64,000 nucleotides of DNA from a virus (lineage: Duplodnaviria; Caudoviricetes), in the IMG/VR virus record IMGVR_UViG_3300031993_000027, positions 32,001 to 96,000 of that record. One strand, 5' to 3'. Positions within the stretch are counted from its first letter, which is position 1. Each line of letters begins with the position of its first letter. The position numbers and the translations under genes were made by a program. This document shows, piece after piece, positions 20,555 through 55,416 of the stretch. The notes below the pieces were generated by a model. That model did no database searches. It worked only from the letters and a program-made list of their open reading frames with translations, and was not told where the DNA came from.

Positions 20555-21979
20555 TTATGCTGTTACCTGTCCTGCAATGTAGAGGTTAGGGTTAACCATC
20601 TTCTTGCCGTACATCGTAGCCCATGCTCTCTGACCACGGAAGTCTGCATCCATGATAAGGTCAGTAGCCGTGATAGGCATATAAGGACAATAGAAGTAAC
20701 CTGCGTCAAACATATTGTTACCCTTGTAGCCCATTACATACTTATCCTGTGGGAAAGCAGGGTTTACATAAACCTTGATGTTACCAATCATACCGCAGTA
20801 GTAAGAACCGTTTGCAACGTTACCACTCGGTTTGAAGTTCCTCATGGATTCGAGAACTGTCTTTACACCAAGACCGCAAATCATAAAGTTTGCGGATACC
20901 TTACGTGTAGCACCTGCGATAGCGTTAGAACTATCGTTGATTCTCTCGATGAATCCGTCGTAGTGGTCTGCAAGACTTACGCCACCAGGCAGTGACTTAG
21001 ACCATGTACGAGGTGTGAGAAGAGGATTTGTGTTACCAACAGCACTCTTCAGGAGGTCAAACGTAATCTCGTTGTCGATTTCGTAAGCCATTTCGCCCGA
21101 AGCCTGTGTAGCAAGCAACTCTTCGATGTTCTGACCATATTCCTTCTGAAGTTCATAAGAAGCATCAAAAGCCCAATATGCTCTAAGTGTACGAGCCGTT
21201 GCAATAACAGGGAGGCTCTGCATTTCGAGACCGATTTCAGGAACGTTTGTGAATCCTGCGCCACCGATAGCACCGTCACCCTCTGTACCACTTGCTGTCT
21301 CACCTGCTGTACCGAATGTATCGAAGCCGTTAGAACGTACTTCCTCATTCATAAAGTAGTAAGATACGAATACCTTCTTACCGTTTGTAGGTGCTGTTGT
21401 AAGCGTTACAGATGTTGCTGTAAGACCGTTTGTGTCGATAGCATAAGTTGTGCCATCTTCGTCAACGATAACAGCCTTGTAGTCACCGTTAGCATCCTTA
21501 GATGTGTCAACAGGTGTCCAATCGAGGCTGAACTGCTTGTTAGAACCATCACCTGTTCCTACCATTTCTCTGTTAACGAATGCGGATGTGTAATCCATGT
21601 CAGAGAACGAACCGTGGATGGAACTATTGAATGTAGTACCTGCCTTTGTCTCACCCTTGTTAGACTGATACTGATAGTTGAGGTAGTTAATCATACCAAC
21701 TCTGTTATCCATTGGCTGAACAGCAACTACGTCAAATGCGATAAGGTTAGGTACGGAAGCGGTAAGGATATCAAGAGCATATCTCTTGTACTGACCGATT
21801 TGAGCAGGGTTTGTTGCTTCCATAGCCTTAATACGAGACTGTGTGTTCTCCAAGCAATGAGCAAGAGCGACCTTCTTCTCGAAAGTCATAGGCTTACCCT
21901 GTACCTTCTCTACCATTGCAATTCTCTTAGCGAACTTACTGATAAGGTAAGCACTTCTTTGGTTAATCAAATTAGCCAT
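20555..21979 (-). CDS. Major capsid protein (T4 gp23-like)
   Basis: PNLIAFDVVAVQPM, ARTLRAYW, EMAYEIDNEI, DAGYFYCPY motifs. Confidence 0.95.
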   Translation of the reverse strand: MANLINQRSAYLISKFAKRIAMVEKVQGKPMTFEKKVALAHCLENTQSRIKAMEATNPAQIGQYKRYALDILTASVPNLIAFDVVAVQPMDNRVGMINYLNYQYQSNKGETKAGTTFNSSIHGSFSDMDYTSAFVNREMVGTGDGSNKQFSLDWTPVDTSKDANGDYKAVIVDEDGTTYAIDTNGLTATSVTLTTAPTNGKKVFVSYYFMNEEVRSNGFDTFGTAGETASGTEGDGAIGGAGFTNVPEIGLEMQSLPVIATARTLRAYWAFDASYELQKEYGQNIEELLATQASGEMAYEIDNEITFDLLKSAVGNTNPLLTPRTWSKSLPGGVSLADHYDGFIERINDSSNAIAGATRKVSANFMICGLGVKTVLESMRNFKPSGNVANGSYYCGMIGNIKVYVNPAFPQDKYVMGYKGNNMFDAGYFYCPYMPITATDLIMDADFRGQRAWATMYGKKMVNPNLYIAGQVTA

Positions 21980-21997: not shown

Positions 21998-23596
21998 TTA
22001 GTCTACTTTGTGTCCGAAGTTCTGTAAGAAATTCATTGTCTGTCTATCTTCATCATTGAGACCAATACTGCTTTCAAATCCGACAGGCTTAATAGCGATA
22101 GGAAGTTTACTAAGTCTTCTCTTCTCGTCTGACAACTGCTCAACTATCATATCAACGTCTTGAATACCATAGTTAGCAGGAAGCATCTGTCTGACCTTGT
22201 TTTGGTCTATTCCTTCGGATAAACACTTTGTTCCAATGTATCTTTCGAGCACTTCAGACATTTGTGTTTTTTGTTCTGTAAGTCTGTTAGATACATTTTG
22301 CATCTTGTTCTCGGTCAACATCTGACTGTTGTTAACCTTTTCCAAGTCAGAGTTAAGAGCGTTGTTCTCTTCGTAGAGAGAATCCAACTCGTTAGCCTTG
22401 TTAGACAACTCGTTCTCCAACTCAATTATCCTGCCCTCGTTTTCCTTATTGGCTTCGGTAAGGCTTTCTAACTGATTGTCCTTAGATTCGAGTTCCTTTG
22501 TCAAAGTAGAAGTTTCCCTCTTTGCCTCCGACAATTCTCTTCTAAGAGAATGAATCTGTCTCTTTGCTTCTTCGAGTTGTGCCTTTAAAGTTTCTGTTTC
22601 TTCGGAATAGGATTCTTCAAGTCTCCTGACCCTAGAACTTGCCTTATTCAACTTTTCCATAACGTCACGGTTTACTCTTTCAAGTCTCTCGTTCTTTACT
22701 TCAAGTCTCCTAAGAACTCTCTTGCTAGAAATGGATTCGGCTTTGTAGTCCTCTTTGAGTTCGTTCATCTTCTTATCACTAATATTATTAGCCTCTTTAA
22801 GAGATTCTAACTCGGACTTCAAGTTCTCGTTCTCTTCTGCAAGATTTCCCAAATCTTCTTCCAACTTGCTAGACAGATTCGCTCCGTCTACGTTGGACAA
22901 TCTATTGTCGATTGATTCTCTGATAGAATCAAGATTCGGCATATTTACGGATTCTGCTAATCTCTTTAACCCGATTAGTTCATCCTTAGTCGTGGCATTC
23001 TCTATCTCCTTTGTGAAGATATCAGTTACCTTTGCCCTTGCAACTGATTCAACCTTGTCAGGTCTTGCTGACTTAACAGCAGGTTGTACTACCATATCGT
23101 GACCGTAATACGAATATGTGTCAGGGTCGATTATCGTCTCTCCGTTTCTTTCGATTTCATCACCGAGACCTCTTGATGAAACACCTATCTTACATCCATA
23201 ATCAATGAGAGACTTCAGGATACGTCCCTGCGGTGTGTCGAGGATATCGAACTCTACCCAAAGGATACTTTCATTCTCTCTGATTTCCATATTGGTAAGA
23301 ACAACTGCAACCTCTTTTAGTGAAGAATCTATGCGTTCTGTCGGATGGTCAAGTTCCCCAAAACAAGTGTGAGTTTCCATCATTTCCTTGTAATCGTCAG
23401 AGTTCATTACATTACGCCACAACTGAATGTCATATCTACGACCATTTCTTGTTGGTGCGTTGAACTCTGCTCCGATACCTGCAAGGTGTCCTAAACAATT
23501 CGGATTAGTTACAGGTGCTTCACTGTATTCGAGTACAGTCTGAAGTCTCTCTGTCAAAACTTTCTTAGCCATTATCTCGCCCTTCTCTTTTGACAT
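21998..23596 (-). CDS. Prohead protease (gp21-like) fused to a coiled-coil scaffold (probable start 23572)
   Basis: TRNGRRY, GELDHP (His), ILDTPQG, GVSSRGLG (Ser), then a long coiled coil. Confidence 0.9.
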   Translation of the reverse strand: MSKEKGEIMAKKVLTERLQTVLEYSEAPVTNPNCLGHLAGIGAEFNAPTRNGRRYDIQLWRNVMNSDDYKEMMETHTCFGELDHPTERIDSSLKEVAVVLTNMEIRENESILWVEFDILDTPQGRILKSLIDYGCKIGVSSRGLGDEIERNGETIIDPDTYSYYGHDMVVQPAVKSARPDKVESVARAKVTDIFTKEIENATTKDELIGLKRLAESVNMPNLDSIRESIDNRLSNVDGANLSSKLEEDLGNLAEENENLKSELESLKEANNISDKKMNELKEDYKAESISSKRVLRRLEVKNERLERVNRDVMEKLNKASSRVRRLEESYSEETETLKAQLEEAKRQIHSLRRELSEAKRETSTLTKELESKDNQLESLTEANKENEGRIIELENELSNKANELDSLYEENNALNSDLEKVNNSQMLTENKMQNVSNRLTEQKTQMSEVLERYIGTKCLSEGIDQNKVRQMLPANYGIQDVDMIVEQLSDEKRRLSKLPIAIKPVGFESSIGLNDEDRQTMNFLQNFGHKVD

Positions 23597-24890: not shown

Positions 24891-24915
24891 CTTAACGAAT
24901 GTTTAGGATTGAATC
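24891..24915 (-). promoter_or_regulatory. Class B promoter-like motif GATTCAA-N10-TCGTTAAG
   Basis: One of 5 copies with identical spacing. Confidence 0.6.
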
Positions 24916-25712
24916 TCCTCTTTAGGAGCGAGTATTACCTTTTCAGGTTCATCAGGAACGGTATAAGGGAATGTTACCTCTACACGGCTTTGTCCACTCT
25001 GAAACCATGACTTGCCACCATCATCAGAAAATACCTTGCCCTCTATGTCATAGGCTTTGCCATCCTTGTCTTTGAACACAGAAGAATATCTCTTGTTCTG
25101 ATAATGTCCGTTTGTTATCTCTCCCCATTCGTCATCCTCTCCTGTAAGTGGAGATAATGGCTTGAACCTTGCAAGTCTGTTGAAGTAGTCACAGTTAATG
25201 CTGAATCCTGAATGTCCCTGACTGCTGATAACCTTGATAAGAGCGAGAACATCCTTGTTCAGTCTTTCCTGATACTCGTCTCCTATGCGAGTAATCCTAC
25301 GCAACTCACTCTTGGCGTACTTAACAAGATGGTCTTCTTCGTCATAGTAGTCGGTTTCTTCGTCACAATAAGTTCTTTCTTCTTCGTCTTCTTCTTCATC
25401 AAAGTCTTCGTCATCTTCATATTCAACTTTGCGCACTCTCATTAGTTCTTTACCGTTTTTCGCTTTTTCCTCTTCTTCGGTATCAACTAATCTTCTGCAA
25501 AGGTCTTGAAGTTCAGAAAATGTTTCCCTTTTGTCTGTCCTAAAATCGACATGATACCATCCGCAATCATAAGTTATTGAAAAAGACGAATACTTTTCCT
25601 TGAAAACCTCTTTGCAGAATTTTTCTACCGTTTCTAAAGAATCTTCACATTCGGTATGAAACTCAATACAATACCTGTTGGTTGATTCATATGATGTTCT
25701 AAAAAATGACAT
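24903..25712 (-). CDS. Hypothetical protein (QGHSGFS/PLTGEDDEW family)
   Basis: Recognisable phage motif; RBS. Confidence 0.7.
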   Translation of the reverse strand: MSFFRTSYESTNRYCIEFHTECEDSLETVEKFCKEVFKEKYSSFSITYDCGWYHVDFRTDKRETFSELQDLCRRLVDTEEEEKAKNGKELMRVRKVEYEDDEDFDEEEDEEERTYCDEETDYYDEEDHLVKYAKSELRRITRIGDEYQERLNKDVLALIKVISSQGHSGFSINCDYFNRLARFKPLSPLTGEDDEWGEITNGHYQNKRYSSVFKDKDGKAYDIEGKVFSDDGGKSWFQSGQSRVEVTFPYTVPDEPEKVILAPKEEIQS

Positions 25713-27646: not shown

Positions 27647-27830
27647 TGTCTGCCTCCTGTTTTGGGTATACCTGTTCGCCTCCTATCAGAACCTTAACTT
27701 GCTTCTTCTGTTCGGCTTCGAGCAATCCGTATTTGTATCCACGTTCCCATGCTTGCGCTACTATCTGTTCGATTGCCCCCTTCATTCCCTCAAGATTTTT
27801 CAGTTTTGTTTCTGTCTTTGTCTTACTCAT
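27630..27830 (-). CDS. Hypothetical protein
   Basis: GGAGGCAGACAATG junction. Confidence 0.6.
   Translation of the reverse strand: MSKTKTETKLKNLEGMKGAIEQIVAQAWERGYKYGLLEAEQKKQVKVLIGGEQVYPKQEADNETDN
27644..27657 (-). repeat. 14-bp gene-junction repeat GGAGGCAGACAATG (also at 27828, 28102, 40651, 41036)
   Basis: Five identical copies at gene starts. Confidence 0.85.
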
Positions 27831-28104
27831 TGTCTGCCTCCTTTAACCTCTTATTTGTATCACCGTAATCATAACCAACAGGCACTCTCTTTTCTATCCA
27901 ATCGCCTTGCGGTCTTTTTTGACCATCTTCTAAGCCTTGAACATATCCAATATCGAAGTTATCTCTGATTTCAACTGTCGGGGCATTGTCAATCATACCT
28001 AAAACTTCATCTTTCATTATCCAAGTGTTTACACCATCATAAGAATAAGCACATTCTTTAAGCACTTCTTTCAAAGCACTACGGCTTATTAAATCATTGT
28101 TCAT
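27823..28104 (-). CDS. Hypothetical protein (LISRSALKE...IDNAPTVE module)
   Basis: Shares a 92-bp block with 41035..41499. Confidence 0.65.
   Translation of the reverse strand: MNNDLISRSALKEVLKECAYSYDGVNTWIMKDEVLGMIDNAPTVEIRDNFDIGYVQGLEDGQKRPQGDWIEKRVPVGYDYGDTNKRLKEADNE
27995..28086. repeat. 92-bp exact direct repeat, copy 1 (copy 2 at 41183-41274)
   Basis: Base-by-base comparison. Confidence 0.9.
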
Positions 28105-40653: not shown

Positions 40654-41038
40654 TGTCTGCCTCCCTTAGTTCTTTCAGTATCTTGACTATTTCTGAATTT
40701 TTCTTCCCTGTTGTCTGTATATCCTGAAGTTTGGCGTCCCCCATATGATAGCCATACCATACTAAAACCAAAATCAAAGGGTCATCAAGATTTCCGATTT
40801 GATAAGGTTCACGAACTATGATTCCTTTGCATCCGTCAACAATTACCTCGTCACCAACCGCAACATTTGGCAACTCTCTTTCTTCGAATCTTGAGCAATA
40901 GTCACTATCGGGTTCTATCTGTGAATAATCAGAAATTCCGAATCTGTTATCACAAACGTATTTTATGTAAGGCTTTTCTCCTTCTTTTTCATAATGATTC
41001 TCTTTACAATATTTACAGTATTTGCATTTTTTAGTCAT
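40637..41038 (-). CDS. Hypothetical protein
   Basis: Junction repeat at both ends. Confidence 0.6.
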   Translation of the reverse strand: MTKKCKYCKYCKENHYEKEGEKPYIKYVCDNRFGISDYSQIEPDSDYCSRFEERELPNVAVGDEVIVDGCKGIIVREPYQIGNLDDPLILVLVWYGYHMGDAKLQDIQTTGKKNSEIVKILKELREADNDKTD

Positions 41039-41499
41039 TGTCTGCCTCCCATTGCCTTGCGTATTTTTTCTTTTATCTCACAATCTGAACAACCTGTTTT
41101 GTTATATGAACATTCACCAAACATTGTTAATACACAGTTTACCGCATTTTCAGGTACTTCAACTGTTGGAGCATTGTCGATGATACCTAAAACTTCATCT
41201 TTCATTATCCAAGTGTTTACACCATCATAAGAATAAGCACATTCTTTAAGCACTTCTTTCAAAGCACTACGGCTAATCAAATCAGTATCTCTACCATAGA
41301 TTCTCCACCCTTCTTCCTGAAGTTTCTTGACAAATTCTGCCTGTTGTTCTTTTACAAGTTTCATCATAGAATCTCCGAAAGTAAACCTCGCTGATAACTT
41401 CTTCAAATCAGAAGTTATTTTAGATAGCAGTCTTGTAACTTCTTTATTGTATGCTTCATCTGCTAATTCATATCCTTTTATCTCTTGTTTATTTTTCAT
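41035..41499 (-). CDS. Hypothetical mosaic protein
   Basis: Contains the 92-bp duplicated block. Confidence 0.6.
   Translation of the reverse strand: MKNKQEIKGYELADEAYNKEVTRLLSKITSDLKKLSARFTFGDSMMKLVKEQQAEFVKKLQEEGWRIYGRDTDLISRSALKEVLKECAYSYDGVNTWIMKDEVLGIIDNAPTVEVPENAVNCVLTMFGECSYNKTGCSDCEIKEKIRKAMGGRQ
41183..41274. repeat. 92-bp exact direct repeat, copy 2
   Basis: Identical to 27995-28086. Confidence 0.9.
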
Positions 41500-44364: not shown

Positions 44365-44622
44365 TCACAAGTTTAGTTTATTGACACTGTATTTAATTAC
44401 AGGCTTTCTTCGCCACTCGTCCATATCATTGTCCCACGCTTCTTGATTAAACCTGAAACTACATACATAACTGTACCCATCTTCAACAAGTTCTTCTACA
44501 CTGTCTGTATTGCAAACAGAATACTGATTATCCAATTTTATAACAGACACATCCTGTTGATTCATAGCGTGTTTCTTTGCATTGTTCACCGCACCTTGAT
44601 AAGTCATATTATCCACGTCCAA
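44365..44622 (-). CDS. Hypothetical protein
   Basis: Coupled ORF. Confidence 0.55.
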   Translation of the reverse strand: MDVDNMTYQGAVNNAKKHAMNQQDVSVIKLDNQYSVCNTDSVEELVEDGYSYVCSFRFNQEAWDNDMDEWRRKPVIKYSVNKLNL

Positions 44623-45472
44623 TAGCCTTAATCAAAGCAGGTGTGTATCCACCCTTGCCTCCATTAGCCTTGTAGTATGCCATACAGAGGTCTTCAATAT
44701 ATCTGTACCAATCAGCCATTTCATAATCCGACGTAATGCAAGAATATCCTGTATATTTGAACTCTCCATTCTTGACAATCCAATCAATATATATGTATTC
44801 TGCATCGAATATCTTAGACCTACTTGTTCTTATGTAAGCCTTACCGCCTACGTATTCAGCCATAGCCTTTGCTGTCTCTACATAGCCTACGTCCTTACGA
44901 ACGTCATACATACGAACTAACTCGTCATATACGTCTCTTACATCAGGAAGAAGAGGGTCGCCTGTAAAGTCACTCTCGGTCAACCTAGATTCATAAGCAA
45001 AACGATAGGACAATCCACCACGCTTTCCACGTCCGTAATAGTCCATTGTATCGAGGTCATAAGGCATCGGGTCTTTACCCTTTACCTGCTCGTAGGAAAC
45101 GTCCTCAATAGCATCCTCGTTATCTGCGTTCATAGGAAATGCCTTGTACTTAGGTCTGCCTCCACCAAGGCTGTTTTTCTGATAGCAATACCAACCTCCC
45201 TGACTTCCGACATAAGTATAACCATCCTGCTTTAACTTGTCGTGAAGGGGAGCGTTGTAGAACTCTGTAAGACAGGATTCGTCATAGATATCCATATCAT
45301 ATTCTTCATCCTGCCAAGCGAAGTTAATCCTGTCTTTCAGGTCATAATATGTCTCATAGTCATAATCAGACCACTCGTTCTCGTTAGGATGCTTCTTTAA
45401 AAAGTCCTGAAGTTGTCTTTCTAACGCTCTAGGGTCTTCATAATCCCTATACGTCTCAACTACTCTAATCAT
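44609..45472 (-). CDS. Acidic multidomain protein with leader MIRVVE and internal LTE sites
   Basis: DESCLTEF and YESRLTES linkers. Confidence 0.7.
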   Translation of the reverse strand: MIRVVETYRDYEDPRALERQLQDFLKKHPNENEWSDYDYETYYDLKDRINFAWQDEEYDMDIYDESCLTEFYNAPLHDKLKQDGYTYVGSQGGWYCYQKNSLGGGRPKYKAFPMNADNEDAIEDVSYEQVKGKDPMPYDLDTMDYYGRGKRGGLSYRFAYESRLTESDFTGDPLLPDVRDVYDELVRMYDVRKDVGYVETAKAMAEYVGGKAYIRTSRSKIFDAEYIYIDWIVKNGEFKYTGYSCITSDYEMADWYRYIEDLCMAYYKANGGKGGYTPALIKAIGRG

Positions 45473-45482
45473 ACTTAATTCT

Positions 45483-45634
45483 CCAATATAGAAAACTTAT
45501 AAGAAGAAAACTTCTATGTTTCTTTCCTACTTCAACGAGTGTGCTTTCTTAATTGTTACCAATCAATACTCACAAGTTCTCGCACTCTCCATAGGCGTTA
45601 ATTTCCGACTATTGTATCGGTATCTGTTTTGAAA
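45483..45634 (-). ncRNA. TnpB omega-RNA/right end (IS607-like)
   Basis: Structured non-coding tract after tnpB: ACCGATACAATAGTCGGAAATTAACGCCTATGGAGAGTG...CACTCGTTGAAGTAGG...AAGTTTTC. Confidence 0.6.
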
Positions 45635-46792
45635 TTATATCAGGGCATAATTTCTTAGATTTACACTTGCCTGATAATCTCTATCTATTATATTCCCACA
45701 AACATCACATCTATAAATCCTATTACTTAGTTTTAAGTTATGTTTTATGTTTCCACACTTACAACACTTCTTAGAACTAGGATAGAACCTGTCAGCAATA
45801 ACAAGTCTTATGTTGTTCCATTCACATTTGTATTCTAACTGTCTGTGAATCTCACGGAAACATTGTACCTGTATTGCCTTAGATAAGTGTTTGTTCTTCA
45901 TCATTCCTTTTACATTCAGGTCTTCTATAACAATGAAACTTGGTTCTCGTCTTATTATTTCAGAAGTCATTTGATGTATAAAATTATGACGAATATTAGA
46001 TACCTTATGATTTAGTCGAAGAAATTTAATCTGTTTCTTCTTAATATTCTTAGTTTTTCTATACTTACCTCCTTCTTTATTATTTTCATAACTACGAGAT
46101 ATACTTCTTTGTATTCTCTTTGTCTTTTTATCTAATTGTATCAGTTTCTTGGCTTTATTGATATTAGAATATACAATTTCATCAGAACAAATTGCTAAAT
46201 CTTTAATTCCTAAGTCAATTCCTATTCCTTCATTAGAAGGATTCTTTTCTTCTAATTCTTCCTCAACGCCAACTGTTACCCACCAATTTATACCATCAAA
46301 AGTGAATCTTGGATTATAGTATTTAACTCCTGTTGGTATTCTATTTCTTTCTGCTAGTCTAATCCAATTTATCTTTTGTTTATTGGATTTCTTACTTTGA
46401 GTGAACCCTTCAACTTTAATCTGCGTTTCTGTCACTTTGATTTTACAAGAATCTTGAAAGAAACTAGGCTTACTTTTTCTTTTACTTTTGAATCTTGGAT
46501 ACTCGGATTTTCCTTTGAAGAATTTAATATAAGAAGAACAAGCATCTTTTATCGCTTGTTTTGTTACTTCATTAGAAACCCTATAAAGCCATTCATTCTC
46601 TTTTTGTTTCTTGTATTGAGTGAACAGTTTCCTAAGTTCTCCGTCTTGAACAAAGGTTTTGTTTTCTTGATAAGACTTATTTTCTTGTTCTATAACCCAA
46701 TTATAAGCATAACGAGAAACATTTGCATAGGCAAACATCTTTGTCATTTGCTTATTATTAGGTAAGAGCATTACTTTATAAGTCTTTATCAA
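45635..46792 (-). CDS. tnpB: TnpB RNA-guided endonuclease (IS200/IS605/IS607 family), no transposase nearby
   Basis: N-terminal HTH, GIDLG (D), IEDL (E), CCKC..CDVC Zn finger, DRDYQASVN (D); visibly more AT-rich than its neighbours. Confidence 0.95.
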   Translation of the reverse strand: MIKTYKVMLLPNNKQMTKMFAYANVSRYAYNWVIEQENKSYQENKTFVQDGELRKLFTQYKKQKENEWLYRVSNEVTKQAIKDACSSYIKFFKGKSEYPRFKSKRKSKPSFFQDSCKIKVTETQIKVEGFTQSKKSNKQKINWIRLAERNRIPTGVKYYNPRFTFDGINWWVTVGVEEELEEKNPSNEGIGIDLGIKDLAICSDEIVYSNINKAKKLIQLDKKTKRIQRSISRSYENNKEGGKYRKTKNIKKKQIKFLRLNHKVSNIRHNFIHQMTSEIIRREPSFIVIEDLNVKGMMKNKHLSKAIQVQCFREIHRQLEYKCEWNNIRLVIADRFYPSSKKCCKCGNIKHNLKLSNRIYRCDVCGNIIDRDYQASVNLRNYALI

Positions 46793-47259
46793 GTTTCTGT
46801 ACCTCCATCATAATCTTCAAGGGTAATCTTTTTTCCTGTGACAGCAAACTTCCTTGTATCGTACAATTCTCTCTTCAATTCAGGTCTTTGCTGAAGAACG
46901 GATTCTTTTATCATTTCGTACTCTTCGTCATCCATATTATCAAGCAAAGAAGTAACCGTTGAATTTCTCTCGCTCTCCATCCAATCCTTAATGACCGCAC
47001 AAATAATCTCTTTGTTGTCATTGATAATCTCGTACAGGTCTTCTCTCTTGGCGAACGCTTCATCAGGTTCGATAGTATGACCTTCAGGACAGAGTTCGGT
47101 CAACTCGTTCTCGTATACATCAAGGTTGTTTGCGAACAGGTTGATAATCTCTTCGAAAGCAAGGTCAAAACCTTGAACGAAAGAATCGTCTCCCTCGTTC
47201 AAGAACTTCTCATTGTAATCACTGTCATTTCTTACATCAGGAAATAAGGACATATGCAC
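46789..47259 (-). CDS. Acidic hypothetical protein
   Basis: RBS; its stop codon overlaps the tnpB start. Confidence 0.65.
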   Translation of the reverse strand: MHMSLFPDVRNDSDYNEKFLNEGDDSFVQGFDLAFEEIINLFANNLDVYENELTELCPEGHTIEPDEAFAKREDLYEIINDNKEIICAVIKDWMESERNSTVTSLLDNMDDEEYEMIKESVLQQRPELKRELYDTRKFAVTGKKITLEDYDGGTET

Positions 47260-47260
47260 C

Positions 47261-47578
47261 TCACAACATTGTAAATAGTTTAGAATTACGGTTTGTTATA
47301 GCGTACAGGTCTCCTGTATTTTTATCTCTAAAGAGAATTGCATTGTAGCCATAACCGTTTCTACTTTTGCCTAAAACCTCTTTCTTGATAGACTGAAGAA
47401 ACTTTTTAAATTCCTCGTAGGAATAGTTAGATACATCTTCTGCCATACCGTTTTCTACGTACCAAAGTATGTCCTCTTTAGTACAGGATGTACCTCTTGT
47501 ATTGAGAAGGTCTTTGTATTGATGATTCGACTTAGACCTTCCCCACGTTCTTGCCTCTACCTTGATTTCTCTTATCAT
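47261..47578 (-). CDS. Hypothetical protein with leader MIREIKVE
   Basis: YGYNAIL...G.LYAIT.R motif. Confidence 0.65.
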   Translation of the reverse strand: MIREIKVEARTWGRSKSNHQYKDLLNTRGTSCTKEDILWYVENGMAEDVSNYSYEEFKKFLQSIKKEVLGKSRNGYGYNAILFRDKNTGDLYAITNRNSKLFTML

Positions 47579-48561
47579 AACTCAATAGTCTCTGCATCCC
47601 ACTCGTAACCGTCGTCAGAAACGCCCTTGGATACAAACAGATAAGCAGGTTCGTCATCGTCGTTAAAGAATCCTACTTCGCAAGGCTTGTCATATTCACC
47701 TTCGTCGATATATCCTGCGAGCGTGTAGTCAACGAGACCGTTGTTTACCTTCTTAGGAGAAGCATTGTCGTCAATCCAATATGTGACACCGCCACCTGTT
47801 CTCGGTGCATCTTCACCGCAAACCTTTTTCTGATTGAGAACCTTCTTCTTTTTCTTCTTAGAGCCACAACCTTCGTAAAGGTCTGAATCCTCGTCGTCGA
47901 AGTCGTCCCAATCATCATCGTCAGCAGGGAGGTTAGCGTTGAACTCGTCGATAAACTTATATCCTTCATCGAGAATCCATCCGAAGTCTGAAGAATCTGC
48001 TGAATAGATTGACATATCGGTATCCAATGTGTCACCGTATTCGTTTACAGGATAAGGCATAAGCCAATCCCACTCGTACTCGTTCATCATAGAGTTTCTA
48101 GGACAGTAAGCGAACTTTGCCTGTACAAAGTCTGATTCTCCGTCATAGCCGTAACTCTCTGCACTATCTTCGTCCATATAGCACATAACAACAGCGAAGT
48201 CGTTCTCGTCGTTGTAACCGATATCTACCCAATAAGTAGCGGATGGGTCTTTATCACTCATTGCTCTATTGAACTGTTCCTCGCACTCTTTAAGAGCCTG
48301 TTCCATTTTCTTAGTAACAGTGATTTCAGTATCACCTGCGGAATTTCCAAATCTTTCACTCATATTCGTTTTATTCTCCTTTACATAGTGAGAATTGCCA
48401 CCGTTATAATAGTTTTGAAGCAGGTACAACGCTTCTGTGTCAAGACTAATAGCCTTACTGTTAGCACTCTTCAACATAGCGTGTGCGTATTCGTCATTTG
48501 CTAAATCATTTAACATAACGCTTATTTGTTTAACTTTGTAATCGTCAAAAGGCATATTCAT
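47575..48561 (-). CDS. Very acidic multidomain protein
   Basis: Internal in-frame AAGGAG + ATG at 48363. Confidence 0.7.
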   Translation of the reverse strand: MNMPFDDYKVKQISVMLNDLANDEYAHAMLKSANSKAISLDTEALYLLQNYYNGGNSHYVKENKTNMSERFGNSAGDTEITVTKKMEQALKECEEQFNRAMSDKDPSATYWVDIGYNDENDFAVVMCYMDEDSAESYGYDGESDFVQAKFAYCPRNSMMNEYEWDWLMPYPVNEYGDTLDTDMSIYSADSSDFGWILDEGYKFIDEFNANLPADDDDWDDFDDEDSDLYEGCGSKKKKKKVLNQKKVCGEDAPRTGGGVTYWIDDNASPKKVNNGLVDYTLAGYIDEGEYDKPCEVGFFNDDDEPAYLFVSKGVSDDGYEWDAETIEL

Positions 48562-48567
48562 TCTCCT

Positions 48568-49572
48568 TTACTCTTCTTCGTCAAAATCTTCGTCTTCTTC
48601 GTCCTCGTCCCAATCAGGTTCGAGTTCGTCTTTGTGTTCTTCCCACTTTTCTTTCGCCCAACGTTCGAAGTTCTTATAAAAATCTTGTTCGAATCTTTCA
48701 AGTTCTTCCCTTGTTAGGTTATCTATTTCAAAACCATCGTATTGATTATATACATCAATATAACCATTATCACGAACATAATCTCCATAATCAATGAAGT
48801 CTTCTATTACATCTGAAGCATCAATAATACCTGCTTCGTGGAGTTCATCAAAATAAGAGTTCATTCCAAGGTTTGCATCGTAACTATGACAGTGACCTTT
48901 TTCTTCCCAATACTCAACGTGACTATTGTCTATTTCTTCATCATAAGAACGACAATCTGCTGTTGCAGGTTCAGCAAATAATTCAAGGTTTGCTTCAAGA
49001 TAATCTACGATTGCTCCTGCAAGAGTTTCTTCGATAAACTTAGTATAAGCATCGTCGTTTATTTGATAATATTCTATATGTTTATAAGCATAATCTTTAA
49101 GAAGTCTTGCGATAGTATCATCTGTTTCTTCAATAAGGAATGAGGCATCACCGCCACACGTTTCAAGACCATAACCTTCGTAGTATAAATCGCCATCATT
49201 ATAGTTACGGTAAGCAATCCTGTTGTACGCTCTTACAATCTCACCGCCTTGCGTATCGGAAGTGCCTGACTGTTTAACAAAAGGCTTAAACAAATCTTCC
49301 AACTTCTCGTCTGCGGTCTTATCGCTTTCAAGGATATCTCTAGCAACAGAAATCTCGGCTTCGTGCTCCTTGATGAAAGCCTGTTTTTGTCTCTCGGCTT
49401 CCTCACGCTCTTTAGCCAATCTCTCTGCTTCCTTCTCGTCATCGTACTTCTGCTGTGTCTTACGAGTAACCGTGTCGTAAGAATCGTATCCGTACTGACT
49501 TGCATCTTTAGGAAGCATTATATTACCAACACGGATATAATCATCTTCCGCTTCAAACAGATTAAGTCTCAT
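48568..49572 (-). CDS. Acidic protein with leader MRLNLFE
   Basis: GEIVRAYNRIAYRNYNDGD motif. Confidence 0.7.
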   Translation of the reverse strand: MRLNLFEAEDDYIRVGNIMLPKDASQYGYDSYDTVTRKTQQKYDDEKEAERLAKEREEAERQKQAFIKEHEAEISVARDILESDKTADEKLEDLFKPFVKQSGTSDTQGGEIVRAYNRIAYRNYNDGDLYYEGYGLETCGGDASFLIEETDDTIARLLKDYAYKHIEYYQINDDAYTKFIEETLAGAIVDYLEANLELFAEPATADCRSYDEEIDNSHVEYWEEKGHCHSYDANLGMNSYFDELHEAGIIDASDVIEDFIDYGDYVRDNGYIDVYNQYDGFEIDNLTREELERFEQDFYKNFERWAKEKWEEHKDELEPDWDEDEEDEDFDEEE

Positions 49573-49629
49573 AATTATTCTCCTTTAGATTTTTACATAA
49601 AAATACCTACTGTTTCCATTATTAAATAA

Positions 49630-49660
49630 AAAGCCCCTAAATGCAAGACTTAGGGACTTT
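49630..49660 (-). terminator. Intrinsic terminator
   Basis: AAAG.CCCTAA/TTAGGG.CTTT plus T-run. Confidence 0.6.
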
Positions 49661-49675
49661 AAACATCAAACATTA

Positions 49676-50488
49676 TTAGAAATAAAAGTCTACGTAGACC
49701 ATCTTATCGCCCTTGAAATCACGCCAAGAGTTCATATCGGAATACTTCGTACAACCGAACGTTCTTGTTGCCCTGTCATACTCACCCTTGATATAAACCT
49801 GCGAATCCTTTGGAGAAGGAATATCCTTCAGCGTAAAGAGGTCTCCCTGCTTCAAGGACTTCAACGGAACAGGTGTTTGAGCACTCCAATTAGTCGTATC
49901 AACAGCATCTTCGTCGTACTTCTCTGTGAACCTGATAGGAACTCTGAAACTTACCAACTGATTGTTCTTGTACTTTCCTGTCGGTATGTATCCTTCAAAT
50001 TGGAAGCCAAACCTATTAATTTTGTCTTTAGGAAGTTTAGTTCCGAACTTGTCGTCATCGTCAGTAGCGTTATTAGGTCTAGTGAAGTTCAACGTTCTCT
50101 TGTCGAACGTTACCATCGTAGAACCGTCGGATACATAGATAATGCCGAAGAAATCTTCATCCTTCCAAATGATAGATTCCTGATTGAGAAGTCTACCGAT
50201 TTCAAGAGCCGTTTCCTTCTCAATGTTGTAGAGAATAAAACTCTTCTCAAAGCCTACCGTTCCACTATCATAGGTATAAGTTCCGTTGACAAAGTTGAAG
50301 CCACGAACCTTGCCCTTGTCCGAATACTTGCGGATAAGGTCTCTAAGTTCGTCATACCTGCTCTCGTAGGTATCCTTGTCCTGACTTCCTATAATAGCAA
50401 AAGTAACACTATCGGTAAGATGTTGATAGATTCTACCATAACTTGCTTCTAACAGATTGTCTCTGCTTTCAAGTTCTATAACTGCCAT
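49676..50488 (-). CDS. Conserved large-phage protein (LLEASYGRIYQH...EKSF...QESI) with leader
   Basis: Motif pattern; MAVIELE leader. Confidence 0.65.
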   Translation of the reverse strand: MAVIELESRDNLLEASYGRIYQHLTDSVTFAIIGSQDKDTYESRYDELRDLIRKYSDKGKVRGFNFVNGTYTYDSGTVGFEKSFILYNIEKETALEIGRLLNQESIIWKDEDFFGIIYVSDGSTMVTFDKRTLNFTRPNNATDDDDKFGTKLPKDKINRFGFQFEGYIPTGKYKNNQLVSFRVPIRFTEKYDEDAVDTTNWSAQTPVPLKSLKQGDLFTLKDIPSPKDSQVYIKGEYDRATRTFGCTKYSDMNSWRDFKGDKMVYVDFYF

Positions 50489-50535
50489 TTGTCTTTCCTC
50501 CTTCTTCTTAGATTACAGGGCATCCCTGCATCTTT

Positions 50536-50560
50536 CTTAACGAGACAGCGAGATTGAATC
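50536..50560 (-). promoter_or_regulatory. Class B promoter-like motif GATTCAA-N10-TCGTTAAG
   Basis: Same spacing as the other copies. Confidence 0.6.
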
Positions 50561-52253
50561 ACCACCCACGTTTAATATACTTCCAAAAACGATTGATTGC
50601 TTCTTCATCCGAATTTGCTCTTAGGGACATTTTTGCATCGTCGTCCTTCAGGATGATATACTCGTCGGTGTCACCAAATGTGGAATCCTTGATAAGTTCC
50701 CACTCGCCTCTCTTGATGATAGATACTTCATCAGTAGTCTTGGTGTTAAGAGCCTCTACCTCATAGGATGTTGTGTTATCGTCAATCATCTTGTCAAGAG
50801 CCTTTGTATTAGCAAAGTAAGCAGAACCGTTATCATCTGTTACAACAAGGTTTCCGTTTGCATCTGAACCAAGAACCAAGTTGTACTTAGCAATAGTCTT
50901 TACTGTTTCCCAATTAGTAAAGTTGTCGTTAATAAGTTCTTCCAACTGATATGTGTCACAAACTACAACTTCACTTCTCTTTGATTTTAATAACTTACAG
51001 ATATTGTCATCGGCTCTTACCCAGTAATCCATGTCCTTATCGTCCATGTTGTTAATCATACCTTCTTCGATATCATCGAGAAATCTATAATCTACCTTAT
51101 CGCTTGCACTCTCTAACTTCCTTCTCATAGTCCTGTTTCCCTTTCTGCTTTCAAGTGTTGTTTTATTTAATGGAATAAGTTTGAGTTCACTATAATCAGG
51201 GTGATGTATAAGTTGAGCCTCAAAGTTCTTATCACAGTCATTGCAAAATACTTCTGTGTAGTCTCCGATAGAATCTATATGGATGGAGTTCTTAGCACCG
51301 CATTCAGGGCAATCTACGTCTTTATCAATATATGTCATAGACCACTCGTTTTTTCTCTGTCTGTTTTCAAGTGAAAGTTCCTGCGACCTTAACTTCATAT
51401 AACTGTCCTTTAAATCGGACAGCAGACCAAGGTTGCGAATCTCCTTGAAGGTCTGATTTCCTTTGCCGTATTCTCCTTCAGCAAGGAGACCGTTCTTACG
51501 AAGCAGGTACAGGTCATCGACCATCTTGTTTATCTTATCAGGGTCTTTGCTGTCAAGAGCCTCATTTATCTTATTCTTCCATTCGTCGATATCTGCTTCG
51601 ATATCAATTTCAGGAACTTCGATAGGTTCGGGTTTCTTTATCCACTCTTCCGTCATTACGGAGTAAATGCCGTTACTCATAGTGGATGCGTTTACATCTT
51701 CAACATAGAGTTCAACGTCTATGCCGTGAATAGAAATATCATAGGATTCGTTGAAGTCTGCCTTGGAGAAGTTCATAAGGGTCTGCACTAATCCTGTATT
51801 GTCATCTATTGTCAGAAAGTTAACAACGATATGAACGTCAATATCGGAATGACTTGTATAGTTATAAGAAGCATTAGAACCCAACAGATATATATCTATC
51901 GGGTTGATATCTATTTCGGTCATGCCTTTAATTGTCTCTCTGAACTCTTCCACGATTTCGAGAATCTTTTCTCTTACGTCAGGAAGCAGGTTCATATTGG
52001 TATCCCACAACTTAGGATTGAGTTCTTTGTGTACCTCTAATTTCTCCGTTATTAGGCTTTCAGTAGCGAACGGTGGATTATATGGTTTGAGTTCTTTGCT
52101 AGAGAACACAGGAGCACTGTCACCGTTCCAAAGGCTAACAGAGTATTCGTCGTCTTCCTCATTAGCATCAACGACCTTACCCCACTCGCCACCGTACCAT
52201 TCACTGTTTTTCTTTATCTCTACGTAGTCGCCTACTTTAAACTTCTTCGCCAT
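50559..52253 (-). CDS. Polyprotein: KOW/SH3-like + pol-beta nucleotidyltransferase + Zn ribbon + acidic domains
   Basis: LLGSNASYNYTSHSDIDVH...VELYVED; CPECG..CNDC; LxE linkers. Confidence 0.8.
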   Translation of the reverse strand: MAKKFKVGDYVEIKKNSEWYGGEWGKVVDANEEDDEYSVSLWNGDSAPVFSSKELKPYNPPFATESLITEKLEVHKELNPKLWDTNMNLLPDVREKILEIVEEFRETIKGMTEIDINPIDIYLLGSNASYNYTSHSDIDVHIVVNFLTIDDNTGLVQTLMNFSKADFNESYDISIHGIDVELYVEDVNASTMSNGIYSVMTEEWIKKPEPIEVPEIDIEADIDEWKNKINEALDSKDPDKINKMVDDLYLLRKNGLLAEGEYGKGNQTFKEIRNLGLLSDLKDSYMKLRSQELSLENRQRKNEWSMTYIDKDVDCPECGAKNSIHIDSIGDYTEVFCNDCDKNFEAQLIHHPDYSELKLIPLNKTTLESRKGNRTMRRKLESASDKVDYRFLDDIEEGMINNMDDKDMDYWVRADDNICKLLKSKRSEVVVCDTYQLEELINDNFTNWETVKTIAKYNLVLGSDANGNLVVTDDNGSAYFANTKALDKMIDDNTTSYEVEALNTKTTDEVSIIKRGEWELIKDSTFGDTDEYIILKDDDAKMSLRANSDEEAINRFWKYIKRGW

Positions 52254-52264
52254 AGTCTTAATCC

Positions 52265-52606
52265 TTATTCTTCAAATTTATCAAGCAGTTCATCTTCGTA
52301 GTATATCTCGTCATATTCAATGCCGAGTTCGTTCAGATACTCTACTAACGGATACCTGCCATACTCGTCTTCTAAATTTTCCCACAGGTCTTCATAATAA
52401 TACGAGCGATAATTCTCGCCATCATCTATTTCTTCGACCAATCCTTCTTCAAAGTAGTCATTATAATTCATGTCGCTATCAACTTCTATGCCTAACGATA
52501 TGCAAGCAAATATTTCAGGGTCAACTTCAACAACATCAAACAACGTCCAATGGAGTTGAGGCATATAGGCTGTGCTTAAATCTGTTTCTGCTACAACTAT
52601 TCTCAT
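52265..52606 (-). CDS. Very acidic protein with leader MRIVVAE
   Basis: RBS and composition. Confidence 0.65.
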   Translation of the reverse strand: MRIVVAETDLSTAYMPQLHWTLFDVVEVDPEIFACISLGIEVDSDMNYNDYFEEGLVEEIDDGENYRSYYYEDLWENLEDEYGRYPLVEYLNELGIEYDEIYYEDELLDKFEE

Positions 52607-52609
52607 ATC

Positions 52610-53095
52610 TCATTTTCTCCTATGTTCATATAGTTTACCGAAGATATAGAACCTTCTTATTTTATCCACAACTTCATCAGATATCATATCAGACAATCTA
52701 TACTTCTGCACCTGTCCATCGTAGGTATAGACTTCAACGAAGTTTTGTTTCGCCCCTAACATATCAAGCCACACAAGAAGAACCTTGTACTGTTCATCGG
52801 TCAACTGTCTTTCAGGTAAGACCATATACCACTTTGTCGTATCGCATCTGATACATCCAAGGTCAAACATGGTTTGACTTCCCTGTGTTGCTTTATACTC
52901 GTTTTCGGAGTATCCGTTGTCAATCAGGAACTTCTCAACGTCCGAATGATGTGTATATCTTCTTAAATCCAAGAACTTGCCATCAGGCATTATGTAGGTA
53001 ATGCCTTTAAACGGTAAATCTTCTGTTCCAAATTCTTTTTCAATTATGGAAAGAAGTTCTTTTTCAGTTTGTTCCTGTTCTAAGAAGAGTTTCAT
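52610..53095 (-). CDS. Hypothetical protein with leader MKLFLE
   Basis: YIMPDGKFLD...H motif. Confidence 0.65.
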   Translation of the reverse strand: MKLFLEQEQTEKELLSIIEKEFGTEDLPFKGITYIMPDGKFLDLRRYTHHSDVEKFLIDNGYSENEYKATQGSQTMFDLGCIRCDTTKWYMVLPERQLTDEQYKVLLVWLDMLGAKQNFVEVYTYDGQVQKYRLSDMISDEVVDKIRRFYIFGKLYEHRRK

Positions 53096-53099
53096 TTAA

Positions 53100-54104
53100 T
53101 CACCCAAAATAAATGTCACTAGGAAGGTCATAACCCTTCATATATTCTTCAACACCCTCTGCGGTATAGAGATAGTCGCTATAATCATCAAGTCCTCTCG
53201 GAACTCCAACAGCACCGAAGTTTTCTCCACCATAATAATCTACACAGGCTCTAGCAAACCACATAGGGTCTGTGTCCTTCTTACAATCTGCATAGGATTC
53301 AACCGCATCAACGTCAATCCAAGAATCGTTGATATCAACTGTTCCATCTTCAATAAGATAAACGTATTCATCATCAGGTGTGTCATAAACATAATTGCAC
53401 CTAACGAAATCATATGTTCCGTCACCGTTATCAGAAATAATAAAGCCACCGTCAAGGAAGTTAACGTCTCCAATGTTCTCCCAATTTTGAGCGTTCCTGT
53501 TCTCGAAAAGATTAAGTTTCATAGTATTTATTCTCCTACTTTCTCCAAAATACTCGGCTACATAAGTGTCGAACTCTTCGCCTGTATATAATGCTTTTTT
53601 CTTGCCACTCTGAATGTCTTCAATCTCGTCATCAAGAGCCTCGGCAAAGAATGTTTCCGTATCGGTAACTATTCCATTATCATCATCCAACATCAGGAAC
53701 AAATCATCGTGAGAATAGAATCCGTATTCCTTGGTCTTCAGCATACATTCAAAATCAACTATACCGATATAATCCTGCGGAAATGAGATAAGAATTTGAC
53801 CCTGATATTTGCTCCTGTTCTTGATGCTGTCAAAGATGCTCCAATCGTTGTTGAACTCGAAGTCGGTTACATCGTCTCTAAAGTATGCGTTAACAACATC
53901 AGAGAAGAGTTCTTCAGCACTAAGATTGGCTGAAGTGAAGGTCGAGATACCGCCCTCGTACTTCTCGTCTTCAACATAAAAAGTGATTTCATCAAACTCG
54001 ATTTCAGAGCCAACAGTAAGACCTTCGATTTCGAATCTTCCCTGCTTGCCTGAAAACTGATTTCCACTCTTAAATTGGAATGTCAGGTTAGTTACCTTTG
54101 CCAT
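53100..54104 (-). CDS. Acidic two-part fusion protein (internal MKLNLFE at 53522)
   Basis: Internal RBS + leader. Confidence 0.7.
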   Translation of the reverse strand: MAKVTNLTFQFKSGNQFSGKQGRFEIEGLTVGSEIEFDEITFYVEDEKYEGGISTFTSANLSAEELFSDVVNAYFRDDVTDFEFNNDWSIFDSIKNRSKYQGQILISFPQDYIGIVDFECMLKTKEYGFYSHDDLFLMLDDDNGIVTDTETFFAEALDDEIEDIQSGKKKALYTGEEFDTYVAEYFGESRRINTMKLNLFENRNAQNWENIGDVNFLDGGFIISDNGDGTYDFVRCNYVYDTPDDEYVYLIEDGTVDINDSWIDVDAVESYADCKKDTDPMWFARACVDYYGGENFGAVGVPRGLDDYSDYLYTAEGVEEYMKGYDLPSDIYFG

Positions 54105-54116
54105 GTTCTTTCTCCT

Positions 54117-55097
54117 TTAATCTAACACTTCGATTTGCGGAATCCCTAACTTGTTGCAAGTATCGAAAGCGAACTGTTTTTCTTCTTCAGTAGGTCTGTA
54201 AAGTCCATCCTTCGCATACTTCTTGAAAAGGCTGTAAAACGTATCTTCACAATCCTTATATTCATCTTCGTTGGATGCGATATAAATGAAGTCATCTTCC
54301 GATGGTTCGTCAGGACATACGTAAATCCAAGAGTAATAAGCATCCTCGTTGTTCATCGAAGTCATAACGTTGTGCATCAACTTAATGTTGTTCAAGAGTT
54401 GCTCGTCGTACTTCGGGGGTTCATCTTCTTTTACTCCGTTGTTAAGGATATCCTGTACATAATCCATTATGAAGTCTAATGCCTGTTCATAGGTCTCTAT
54501 ATCGTAGATATTACTTGCATCTAACGTTTCGTTTTCCTTGCTGTATGTAACCCTTACCCAACTTGCTGTAACAATCCTTTTTCCAAAGGCATTTATACTA
54601 TATTCAAAATCCCAATTTACCTTGAATGTTTCTTCGTATTCTTCTACTCTGAAAATATCTATATACCTTGAAAATCTTTCTGTATCAAACGGAATACCTA
54701 AAGATTTAATCGCCATATCTATTCCGAATCCAACAACCTCACGGAAATAAGCAGGGTCGATTTCATCTGAAAAAGCAATGTTAACGGATGAACCATCATT
54801 CTTGAATACATCATAGAACCTGTATCTAGCATTATCGTTAATGCCGTATTTGTCCTCACAGAGATTGAGTTTCATAGAGCCGTTGTTTTTGTTCTCATAG
54901 AATACGTCATCATATTCAAGAATTTCGCTCTCTCCTGTTTCTGTATCCGTGATTTCTACTACGTGTCCGTTGCCTACAAATTCATAGGCGTTAGCATAAG
55001 CCTCGGATTTGTCATCAGTATAGAAATCATCTGCGAGACCACGAAGGTTTCCGTCGTAGTATGCTTTCACCTCATATCTGTAATCTCCGTATGCCAT
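54117..55097 (-). CDS. Acidic multidomain fusion protein (internal MKLNLCE at 54875)
   Basis: Internal leader. Confidence 0.7.
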   Translation of the reverse strand: MAYGDYRYEVKAYYDGNLRGLADDFYTDDKSEAYANAYEFVGNGHVVEITDTETGESEILEYDDVFYENKNNGSMKLNLCEDKYGINDNARYRFYDVFKNDGSSVNIAFSDEIDPAYFREVVGFGIDMAIKSLGIPFDTERFSRYIDIFRVEEYEETFKVNWDFEYSINAFGKRIVTASWVRVTYSKENETLDASNIYDIETYEQALDFIMDYVQDILNNGVKEDEPPKYDEQLLNNIKLMHNVMTSMNNEDAYYSWIYVCPDEPSEDDFIYIASNEDEYKDCEDTFYSLFKKYAKDGLYRPTEEEKQFAFDTCNKLGIPQIEVLD

Positions 55098-55394: not shown

Positions 55395-55416
55395 CCACGC
55401 CCAAAGGAGGGCGTGG
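55395..55416 (-). terminator. GC-rich hairpin
   Basis: CCACGCCC/GGGCGTGG. Confidence 0.55.

Follow-up and report, generated by a model that had tools for sequence, protein, structure and literature searches.

Gene-start leaders as joints between modules in accessory proteins of a myovirus with a Gp23-type capsid

The stretch of DNA analysed here (the window, 64,000 nucleotides, to which coordinates refer unless otherwise stated) comprises bases 32001-96000 of the IMG/VR record IMGVR_UViG_3300031993_000027, a complete viral genome of 127,491 bp with direct terminal repeats. Between positions 47,575 and 55,097 it contains four accessory genes, coding for proteins of 326, 334, 564 and 328 amino acids (aa), whose modules are connected by short joints resembling the start of a gene. 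Comparison with related sequences indicates that these four genes are almost certainly fusions of modules that elsewhere are separate genes, each opening with a short leader peptide. The genome analysed here is indicated as G000; one related genome, G001, was found (128 kb; capsid protein about 70% identical), while the P-numbered proteins (P0003, P0004, P0029 and others) are homologues encoded on Logan/ENA contigs, which were compared as proteins.

Module chains and their joints

The four genes and their joints are the following.

54117-55097, minus strand: gene for the 326-aa protein, with an N-module (residues 8-60), a linker containing a leader copy and a C-module (residues 91-317)
54855-54896, minus strand: joint ENKNNGS-MKLNLCE (residues 68-81), with internal ATG 54875 and no Shine-Dalgarno (SD) sequence
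53100-54104, minus strand: gene for the 334-aa protein, with an N-module (residues 1-186) and domain X (residues about 202-334; phrog_12969 begins at residue 202)
53502-53546, minus strand: joint GESRRINT-MKLNLFE (residues 187-201), containing in-frame AGGAGAATAA, with ATG 53522 and AGGAGAATAAATACT upstream of it
50559-52253, minus strand: gene for the 564-aa protein, divided by its G001 orthologue, P0043-P0048 and the AlphaFold2 model into five modules, namely SH3-like beta (1-60), nucleotidyltransferase (about 74-293), Zn ribbon (306-363), 383-495 and 506-564
52035-52067, minus strand: joint ATESLITEKLE (residues 63-73), a worn leader where the orthologues of G001 and P0044 start, as MEKYLVE and MNKDILTE
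51345-51374, minus strand: joint SLENRQRKNE (residues 294-303) ahead of the Zn-ribbon module, a module that P0044 lacks
51108-51158, minus strand: joint TLESRKGNRT-MRRKLES (residues 366-382), with ATG 51128 and a degenerate AGAAAGGGA upstream
50745-50768, minus strand: joint SYEVEALN (residues 496-503), a worn leader without Met
47575-48561, minus strand: gene for the 328-aa protein, with an extra N-module (residues 1-59), module A (67-224), an invariant linker and module B (252-328)
48349-48384, minus strand: joint VKENKTN-MSERF (residues 60-71), with ATG 48363 and TAAAGGAGAATAAAACGAAT upstream
47809-47889, minus strand: linker DSDLYE-GCGSKKKKKKVLNQKKVCGE-D (residues 225-251), whose core is invariant in 12 of 12 aligned family members

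The initial annotation had described internal copies of a leader or start context at domain boundaries, at ATG 53522, 54875, 51128 and 48363; re-reading of the sequence and the module maps of the homologues confirm that all four sites exist and are placed at module boundaries. The joints SLENRQRKNE, ATESLITE and SYEVEALN are additional to these. It had also proposed a comparison of the linkers with predicted domain boundaries, and in the AlphaFold2 models of the 326-aa and 564-aa proteins the low-confidence stretches do lie on the joints. For the 326-aa protein (15-sequence alignment, mean predicted local distance difference test score, pLDDT, of 81.7) values below 50 are confined to residues 1-3 and 63-81; the latter stretch corresponds to the linker and MKLNLCE, between the folded domains 8-60 and 91-317. 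The model of the 564-aa protein is weak (mean pLDDT 61.6, with the transferase core poorly predicted), and its low-confidence stretches 61-94, 290-305, 364-382 and 496-505 fall on its four joints. This protein matches phrog_36119 at 2.1e-34 and shows weak Pfam matches to Pol-beta nucleotidyltransferases and Zn ribbons, those to the Pol-beta nucleotidyltransferases being below the curated cut-offs. For most modules Pfam and PHROGs gave no function, and a Foldseek search of the 326-aa model against PDB retrieved nothing meaningful. A PF26096 label among the precomputed annotations could not be recovered with the local Pfam scan.

Split, fused and re-paired relatives

Split orthologues, which the initial annotation had proposed to look for, were found in P0029, P0004, P0005, P0010, P0011, P0045, P0046, G001 and gp217 of Bacillus phage P59. 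The C-module of the 326-aa protein exists alone in six relatives, each about 250 aa long and at most 91% identical, that start with MI(I)VNE in exact register with MKLNLCE; the stand-alone orthologues P0004, P0005, P0010 and P0011 are 63-91% identical (P0004 91%). Three proteins of 357-363 aa are fused as here, and their joint reads MKLNLYE or MKLNLCE. In P0016 and P0027 the 326-type N-module (94% identical in P0016) is connected through NKNNGS-MKLDLNE to domain X of the 334-aa gene, and further module combinations are found in P0017, P0018, P0021 and P0022; the 326-type N-module followed by NKNNGS-MKL(N/D)LxE thus precedes at least four different C-modules, a conserved junction with variable cassettes. 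Elsewhere the last 100 residues or so of the C-module form a domain of their own: at locus L014 a protein of 111 aa, standing alone, is related to the C-terminal half of the 326-aa protein, and a profile search with one alignment (A2) returned only two distant loci, both holding the C-terminal sub-domain.

The 334-type fusion is retained in P0024 and P0025 (81-84% identical), with the joint YFGESKRTN[ST]-MKLNLFEN. Domain X is a stand-alone gene of 122 aa in Bacillus phage P59 (gp217) and in many Bacillus phages, and it is joined to a different partner in Clostridium phage FA67.

In the 564-aa family the joint at ATG 51128 corresponds to SLEKKGVSKG-MKINLTES in G001 (with AAAGGAG upstream), TLENRKGSRT-MKRLSES in P0043 and SLENKRRTGN-MKLTFES in P0044; judging from this alignment, MRRKLES is a worn form of the leader that the orthologues keep as MKINLTES, MKRLSES and MKLTFES. 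Four orthologues, aligning with the 564-aa protein at 50-78% identity, keep the internal Met and Glu-Ser. P0043 has the entire five-module chain; P0045 (112 aa) stands alone, starting about five residues after the Met of this joint, and the last module (last 65 residues) is a separate gene in G001, where it begins with MIEVINE, and in P0046 (73 aa, MIRIVDE). The Zn-ribbon module (51108-51374) is flanked by the similar joints SLENRQRKNE and TLESRKGNRT, as if a cassette had been inserted between duplicated joints.

In the 328-aa gene, as the initial annotation had noticed, the AAG GAG ahead of ATG 48363 is read in frame and encodes Lys-Glu. Within the joint lies the 13-mer TAAAGGAGAATAA (48371-48383), with its TAA shifted by one base from the reading frame; the SD-ATG spacer of the joint is longer than at true starts. 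P0029, which is 97% identical, starts at Met67 of the 328-aa protein, and the 59-residue N-module is absent from all 13 homologues with an N-terminus in that region; MSERF is a worn form of the leader kept by orthologues as MKERFGES and MKRFNES. The out-of-frame TAA in the retained 13-mer, together with this nearly identical split orthologue, shows at the level of sequence that the fusion at 48363 is a derived state of recent origin. No long alternative frame ends at the out-of-frame TAA, and for this reason a simple frameshift or an error of assembly was rejected here.

The second boundary of the 328-aa protein is of another kind and was not part of the initial annotation. The linker, EGC(H)G-K6-7-VLNQKKVCGED, is bracketed by L-[YT]-E and C-G-E; the modules on its two sides are 39-97% identical or unrelated, and the linker is the most conserved part of the family. 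It may act as a basic peptide that binds DNA or serves in targeting, or else mark a hot spot of recombination.

Taken as a whole, these sequences show that relatives split the modules or re-pair them at leader joints. The trivial explanation, that neighbouring genes were falsely joined by a frameshift or in assembly, or that the resemblances are due to chance, is essentially excluded: the contig is indeed a metagenome assembly and P0026 looks chimeric or frameshifted, but the same fusions are present in independent assemblies at 58-86% identity (P0003, P0007, P0009, P0024, P0025, P0043 and G001), the reading frames around the 48363 TAA contradict it, as stated above, and the motif statistics given below argue against chance.

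Several other searches returned nothing: megablast of the leader-gene region against phage records, tblastn of the 326-aa protein and of the 287-aa protein described below against phages, a search for related loci with the 334-aa protein in viral contigs and one with a further alignment (A3) in metagenome, viral and genome contigs.

The leader peptide and its start context

The joints reproduce a stereotyped gene start, in which the SD sequence AGGAGAATAA and an ATG are followed by a leader of 6-7 residues, M-x-x-(x)-hydrophobic-x-Glu. About 20 N-termini in the genome read M-x-x-(x)-[VLIA..]-x-E, the residue two before Glu including V, A and F too. Representative genes are the following.

48568-49572, minus strand: single gene with the true N-terminal leader MRLNLFE behind TAAAGGAGAATAA
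57186-57470, minus strand: gene with the true N-terminal leader MKLPLFE behind TAAAGGAGAATAA, which is in frame with the stop codon of the upstream gene
49676-50488, minus strand: gene for 270 aa opening with two tandem leader-like units, MAVIELE-SRDNLLE
52265-52606, minus strand: single-module leader gene, MRIVVAE
52610-53095, minus strand: single-module leader gene, MKLFLEQE; the G001 orthologue is 69% identical and starts with MKLTLLEE
44609-45472, minus strand: leader gene for 287 aa (MIRVVE) with internal ESCLTE (residues 64-70; 45263-45283) and ESRLTE (residues 160-166; 44975-44995)

The closeness of the internal MKLNLFE to a true N-terminus, MRLNLFE, had been pointed out in the initial annotation, and MRLNLFE is confirmed as the start of 48568-49572; the two internal motifs that it reported in 44609-45472 are likewise present. 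Homologues of the 287-aa protein were not found in G001 or in the phage collection. Around residue 80 the MRLNLFE protein has an internal ..DILE-SDKT.. after a charged coiled-coil-like stretch, which may be a further xLE-S joint.

The motif M[KR]LxLxE occurs twice inside proteins, against 0.03 occurrences expected, and none of 200 residue shuffles reaches two. The 13-mer TAAAGGAGAATAA is found three times in the 127 kb genome, at two true gene starts and at the internal site at 48383, and AGGAGAATAA eight times, every copy being on the coding strand and in the 48-63 kb region. In-frame SD plus ATG as a general signal is not enriched, with 9 sites in the genome versus 13.6 +/- 3.7 in codon shuffles. 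The non-random element is the specific start context with the leader and the orthologue starts, rather than in-frame SD plus ATG alone.

These observations bear on the possibility that the retained SD and ATG are working internal starts, so that each gene would yield both the long chain and a leader-bearing C-terminal module. AGGAG or AAGGAG is placed 10-12 nt before ATG 53522, ATG 48363 and the G001 internal ATG 37768, and the internal Met is kept in every fused orthologue of two joints. Conversely, ATG 54875 has no SD, yet its Met is kept in nine fused forms; spacings of 10-12 nt are in the tail of the genome distribution, where true starts have a mode of 7 and a usual range of 6-10; two joints of the 564-aa protein have lost Met but retained Glu; and the lack of overall enrichment is a further point against. 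Such nested initiation is possible at 53522 and 48363 and not at 54875; as an explanation of the joints it is unlikely.

What is kept at the joints is the peptide. Leader codons vary synonymously. Fused and split forms alike always have the Glu, with L or V two positions ahead of it and a free residue in the middle (C, Y, F, N, T, G); a second Glu is often present ahead of the joint, in xLE-S, GE-S or TE-S. Since the hydrophobic-x-Glu pattern is fixed while the codons are not, the constraint appears to act on the leader peptide and not on the DNA. No paralogy among the leader genes was detected in an all-against-all BLAST, and thus the leaders are not remnants of a single gene family.

Fusion by read-through or by exchange

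The initial annotation had attributed the chains to the loss of stop codons between neighbouring genes. Fusion at leader-bearing starts, with the old start context kept in frame, is upheld by the sequence comparisons, while stop-codon loss is insufficient for most cases. Module exchange at the joint is at least as important as read-through, and three observations lead to this view: the stand-alone 326-type C-module has another leader (MIIVNE, not MKLNLCE); P0016 and P0027 pair the 326 N-module directly with domain X at the leader; and at 48363 the TAA is out of frame and the spacer longer than at true starts, as at the internal sites in general. Recombined forms among the relatives are P0016, P0017, P0021, P0022 and P0027, and proteins of the P0016 type look like products of deletion or exchange between two leader copies. 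Mixing of modules is also seen outside the Glu-leader family: a 154-aa gene (41035-41499) is a mosaic, with 87% identity between its residues 71-118 and the N-terminus of another gene (MNNDLISRSALKE...) and a match of residues 121-150 to a third, the partner loci being 27823-28104 and genome positions -30470..-30231.

Exchange of this kind raises the question of whether the joints are recombination handles and nothing else, the cassettes being swapped through the junction peptide or its DNA and the proteins acting uncut in the cytoplasm, for instance as early anti-defence factors. The association of one N-module with at least four C-modules at the same joint is what a handle would give; an invariant Lys-rich linker amid diverged or unrelated flanks is as gene conversion or recombination would yield; and the ArdA and Tad3-type genes of this genome point to an anti-defence role that needs no packaging. 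Against this, the four MKLxLxE copies of the genome differ at many synonymous positions, so that homologous exchange would lack sufficient DNA identity here; the pattern at the joint, with the hydrophobic residue and the Glu fixed and the middle position free, points to a peptide signal; and about 20 single-module genes are headed by leaders, although they need no joint. As a sufficient account of the joints this is conceivable but rather doubtful, and it is not mutually exclusive with a role of the leader in packaging and cleavage.

Whatever the joints do, near-identical split and fused orthologues document the ways in which accessory genes of phages become joined, are divided and swap modules at gene-start signals that have been retained, and this has value even without cleavage, for gene calling, for domain annotation and for the search for new anti-defence modules.

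Genome setting and head proteins

By gene content the virus is a myovirus, with a tail sheath, a Gp23-family capsid protein and a Peptidase_S77 prohead protease; the order on the minus strand is terminase, portal, about 47 kb of small accessory genes, protease, capsid protein and tail. The genes that matter for the function of the leader are the following.

71166-72992, minus strand: portal gene
21998-23596, minus strand: prohead protease (Peptidase_S77, T4 gp21 type; PF03420 at 3.8e-10, 40 bits with a cut-off of 27; phrog_207 at 3.1e-33) fused to a coiled-coil scaffold-like tail; it is the candidate enzyme for processing
20555-21979, minus strand: major capsid protein of the Gp23 family (PF07068 at 3.2e-53; phrog_138)
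17342-18847, minus strand: head-module protein made partly of Glu-free, Arg-rich units each ending in one Glu, with a conserved N-terminal ..ACLE-S; the G001 orthologue (53035-54450) has the same layout

Among cultured phages the closest capsid proteins, 40-43% identical, come from Listeria phage LIS04, Streptococcus phage GXN1 and Bacillus phage HSE3, and on this ground a host from the Bacillota is likely; cyanophage gp23 is about 25% identical. The genes with leader joints are inside the accessory block, on the minus strand, where almost all genes code for acidic ORFans. Leader matches at gene starts are concentrated between portal and protease, with 18 of 20 in this interval in G000 (37% of the genome) and eight of nine in G001 (18% of the genome).

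Possible role of the joints in head targeting and cleavage

Cleavage after Glu is the rule for proteases of the T4 type; T4 Alt loses 6 residues by a cut at ITE-6 and has a further cut at LTE-619 (PMC5694885). The T-even internal proteins are diverse defence proteins or inhibitors that have only a capsid-targeting sequence (CTS) in common (PMC3012670), and in T4 IPI-III and Alt this sequence or propeptide is removed by the gp21 protease (PMC3012670; PMC5694885; Repoila et al. 1994 cited therein).

By analogy, the leader joints could be address-and-cut sites for head cargo; this is the preferred reading, although it is given somewhat less than an even chance. The leader would be this lineage's counterpart of the T4 capsid-targeting or propeptide signal (MELITE in Alt, the CTS in the internal proteins): leader-bearing proteins would be made alongside the head proteins, join the scaffold core and be cut after Glu by the S77 head protease. 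An internal leader, often with a second Glu before it (xLE-S, GE-S), would direct the chain to the prohead and allow its cleavage into modules, and leaderless first modules would ride in on the tag of the next one. Every module would then keep its own start and cut signal, so that fusion, fission and exchange would cost little, which would explain the combinatorial architectures.

This proposal is favoured by the constraint on the peptide, by the agreement of hydrophobic-x-Glu with the T4 gp21 rule, by the position between portal and protease and by the Glu-ended units of the head-module protein. These units are 10-18 residues long; their repeats differ between G000 and G001 while the Glu punctuation is kept, which suggests that the protease of this lineage does cut after Glu. 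The head-module protein itself looks like a protease-cut, protamine-like polyprotein. As to position, the T4 map has the order 20-67-68-21, in which the prohead-core genes 67 and 68 are placed between the portal and protease genes, as the leader genes are here.

Several observations weigh against a role in head targeting and cleavage. The likely maturation site of the capsid protein (KAME-A / KAFE-A) has Ala two before Glu, where the leaders have V, L or I; ArdA is encoded in the same array without a leader, and the first module of each chain lacks one; the invariance of a Lys-rich linker over 22 residues exceeds what a three-residue protease rule can account for; the SD-like sequences ahead of three internal ATGs could serve internal initiation; and, to our knowledge, activity of the T4 CTS is documented for the N-terminal position only. 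Furthermore, the first 50 kb (71 of 144 genes) of the cultured relative Bacillus phage HSE3 contain no leader family, and therefore no model phage is at hand.

The chains might also be cut at the joints outside the capsid, by a host protease, by another phage protease or by self-cleavage in the cytoplasm. The linkers are disordered and conserved, and embedded peptidases have been proposed to release polyvalent proteins (PMC5512222); on the other hand, Pfam and PHROGs detect no peptidase domain in the four proteins, and S77 is the only Glu-directed protease family identified in the genome, so that cleavage of this kind is considered improbable.

In its fullest form the proposal of head targeting and cleavage would make one peptide serve three purposes, as gene start, head-core address and protease cut mark, with modules (probably anti-defence) that could be fused, split and re-paired freely while delivery is kept; such a combination is tentative and rather less probable than targeting with cleavage taken by itself. 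The outcome would be a combinatorial library of injectable cargo, in which leaderless modules are carried by their neighbour's tag and released inside the capsid. If the joints were head-protease sites, the principle of the T4 internal proteins, a few injected defence inhibitors with a common leader, would be widened to a general, evolvable loading of many unrelated proteins into the capsid, in a lineage far from T4, and the joints would give a sequence rule for predicting injected proteins from genomes.

Comparison with known systems

The likeness to the T4 internal proteins and Alt consists in the Gp23-family capsid protein with an S77 protease, in a very short N-terminal leader ending in hydrophobic-x-Glu and in the sharing of the leader alone by many unrelated, fast-evolving accessory proteins, in a gene content that looks anti-defence. 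Differently from T4, the leaders, such as MIRVxE and MKLNLFE, do not resemble by eye the T4 CTS (MKTYQEFIAE) and would be at best functional analogues; there are about 20 leader genes instead of a handful; leader copies are found also within genes, as joints between modules; and the lineage is distant, packaging and cleavage being putative here.

In phages and conjugative elements, polyvalent proteins have been predicted to travel with the DNA and to be freed by proteolysis (Iyer et al. 2017, PMC5512222). Like them, the chains described here combine unrelated domains, which may be of the conflict type, in one polypeptide, and the Pol-beta nucleotidyltransferase, weakly matched by the 564-aa protein, is a typical polyvalent component; however, these proteins are small (326-564 aa, two to five modules) and have no embedded peptidase, stereotyped copies of the leader serve as their joints, at which the head protease would cut in trans, and their modules exist also as single genes.

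A further parallel is given by the polymorphic toxins, in which junction motifs such as VENN in CdiA and DPxGL in Rhs mark exchangeable C-terminal cassettes. Here too variable, swappable C-terminal modules come after a constant N-terminal part with a short conserved junction, but the junction doubles as a gene start; the resemblance is one of analogy, not of membership, and no secretion or trafficking domain, toxin domain or cognate immunity gene was detected by Pfam, PHROGs or Foldseek.

Other features of the region

A sigma-70 promoter scan of the 44-64 kb region performed no better than on shuffled sequences. Two strong terminator-like hairpins are present on the minus strand, at 49630-49660 and 55395-55416, the only two good terminators in the scan; they split the leader-joint region into transcription units, one from 55301 down to 49676 and the other from 49572 downwards. 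Within the leader array a gene at 45635-46792 codes for an IS605 OrfB/TnpB protein (Cas12f-like TNB domain), which has two paralogues in the genome, 35-38% identical.

The accessory block between portal and protease includes an ArdA antirestriction protein (PF07275 at 6.8e-32; 64069-64869) and a protein with a Tad3 Thoeris-inhibitor domain (PF25185 at 4.2e-37; 24903-25712), both without a leader. Two paralogous BspA-type leucine-rich-repeat proteins of about 980 aa are encoded at 79462-82410 and 68084-71005; one starts with the leader MIRPLNE and the other with MSEQMILVE.

Finally, the capsid gene of G001 is recovered by tblastn in four pieces over 5.6 kb (about 45395-51056 of that genome, loci L008-L009), while it is uninterrupted in the window; the G001 gene probably carries introns or inteins with homing genes.

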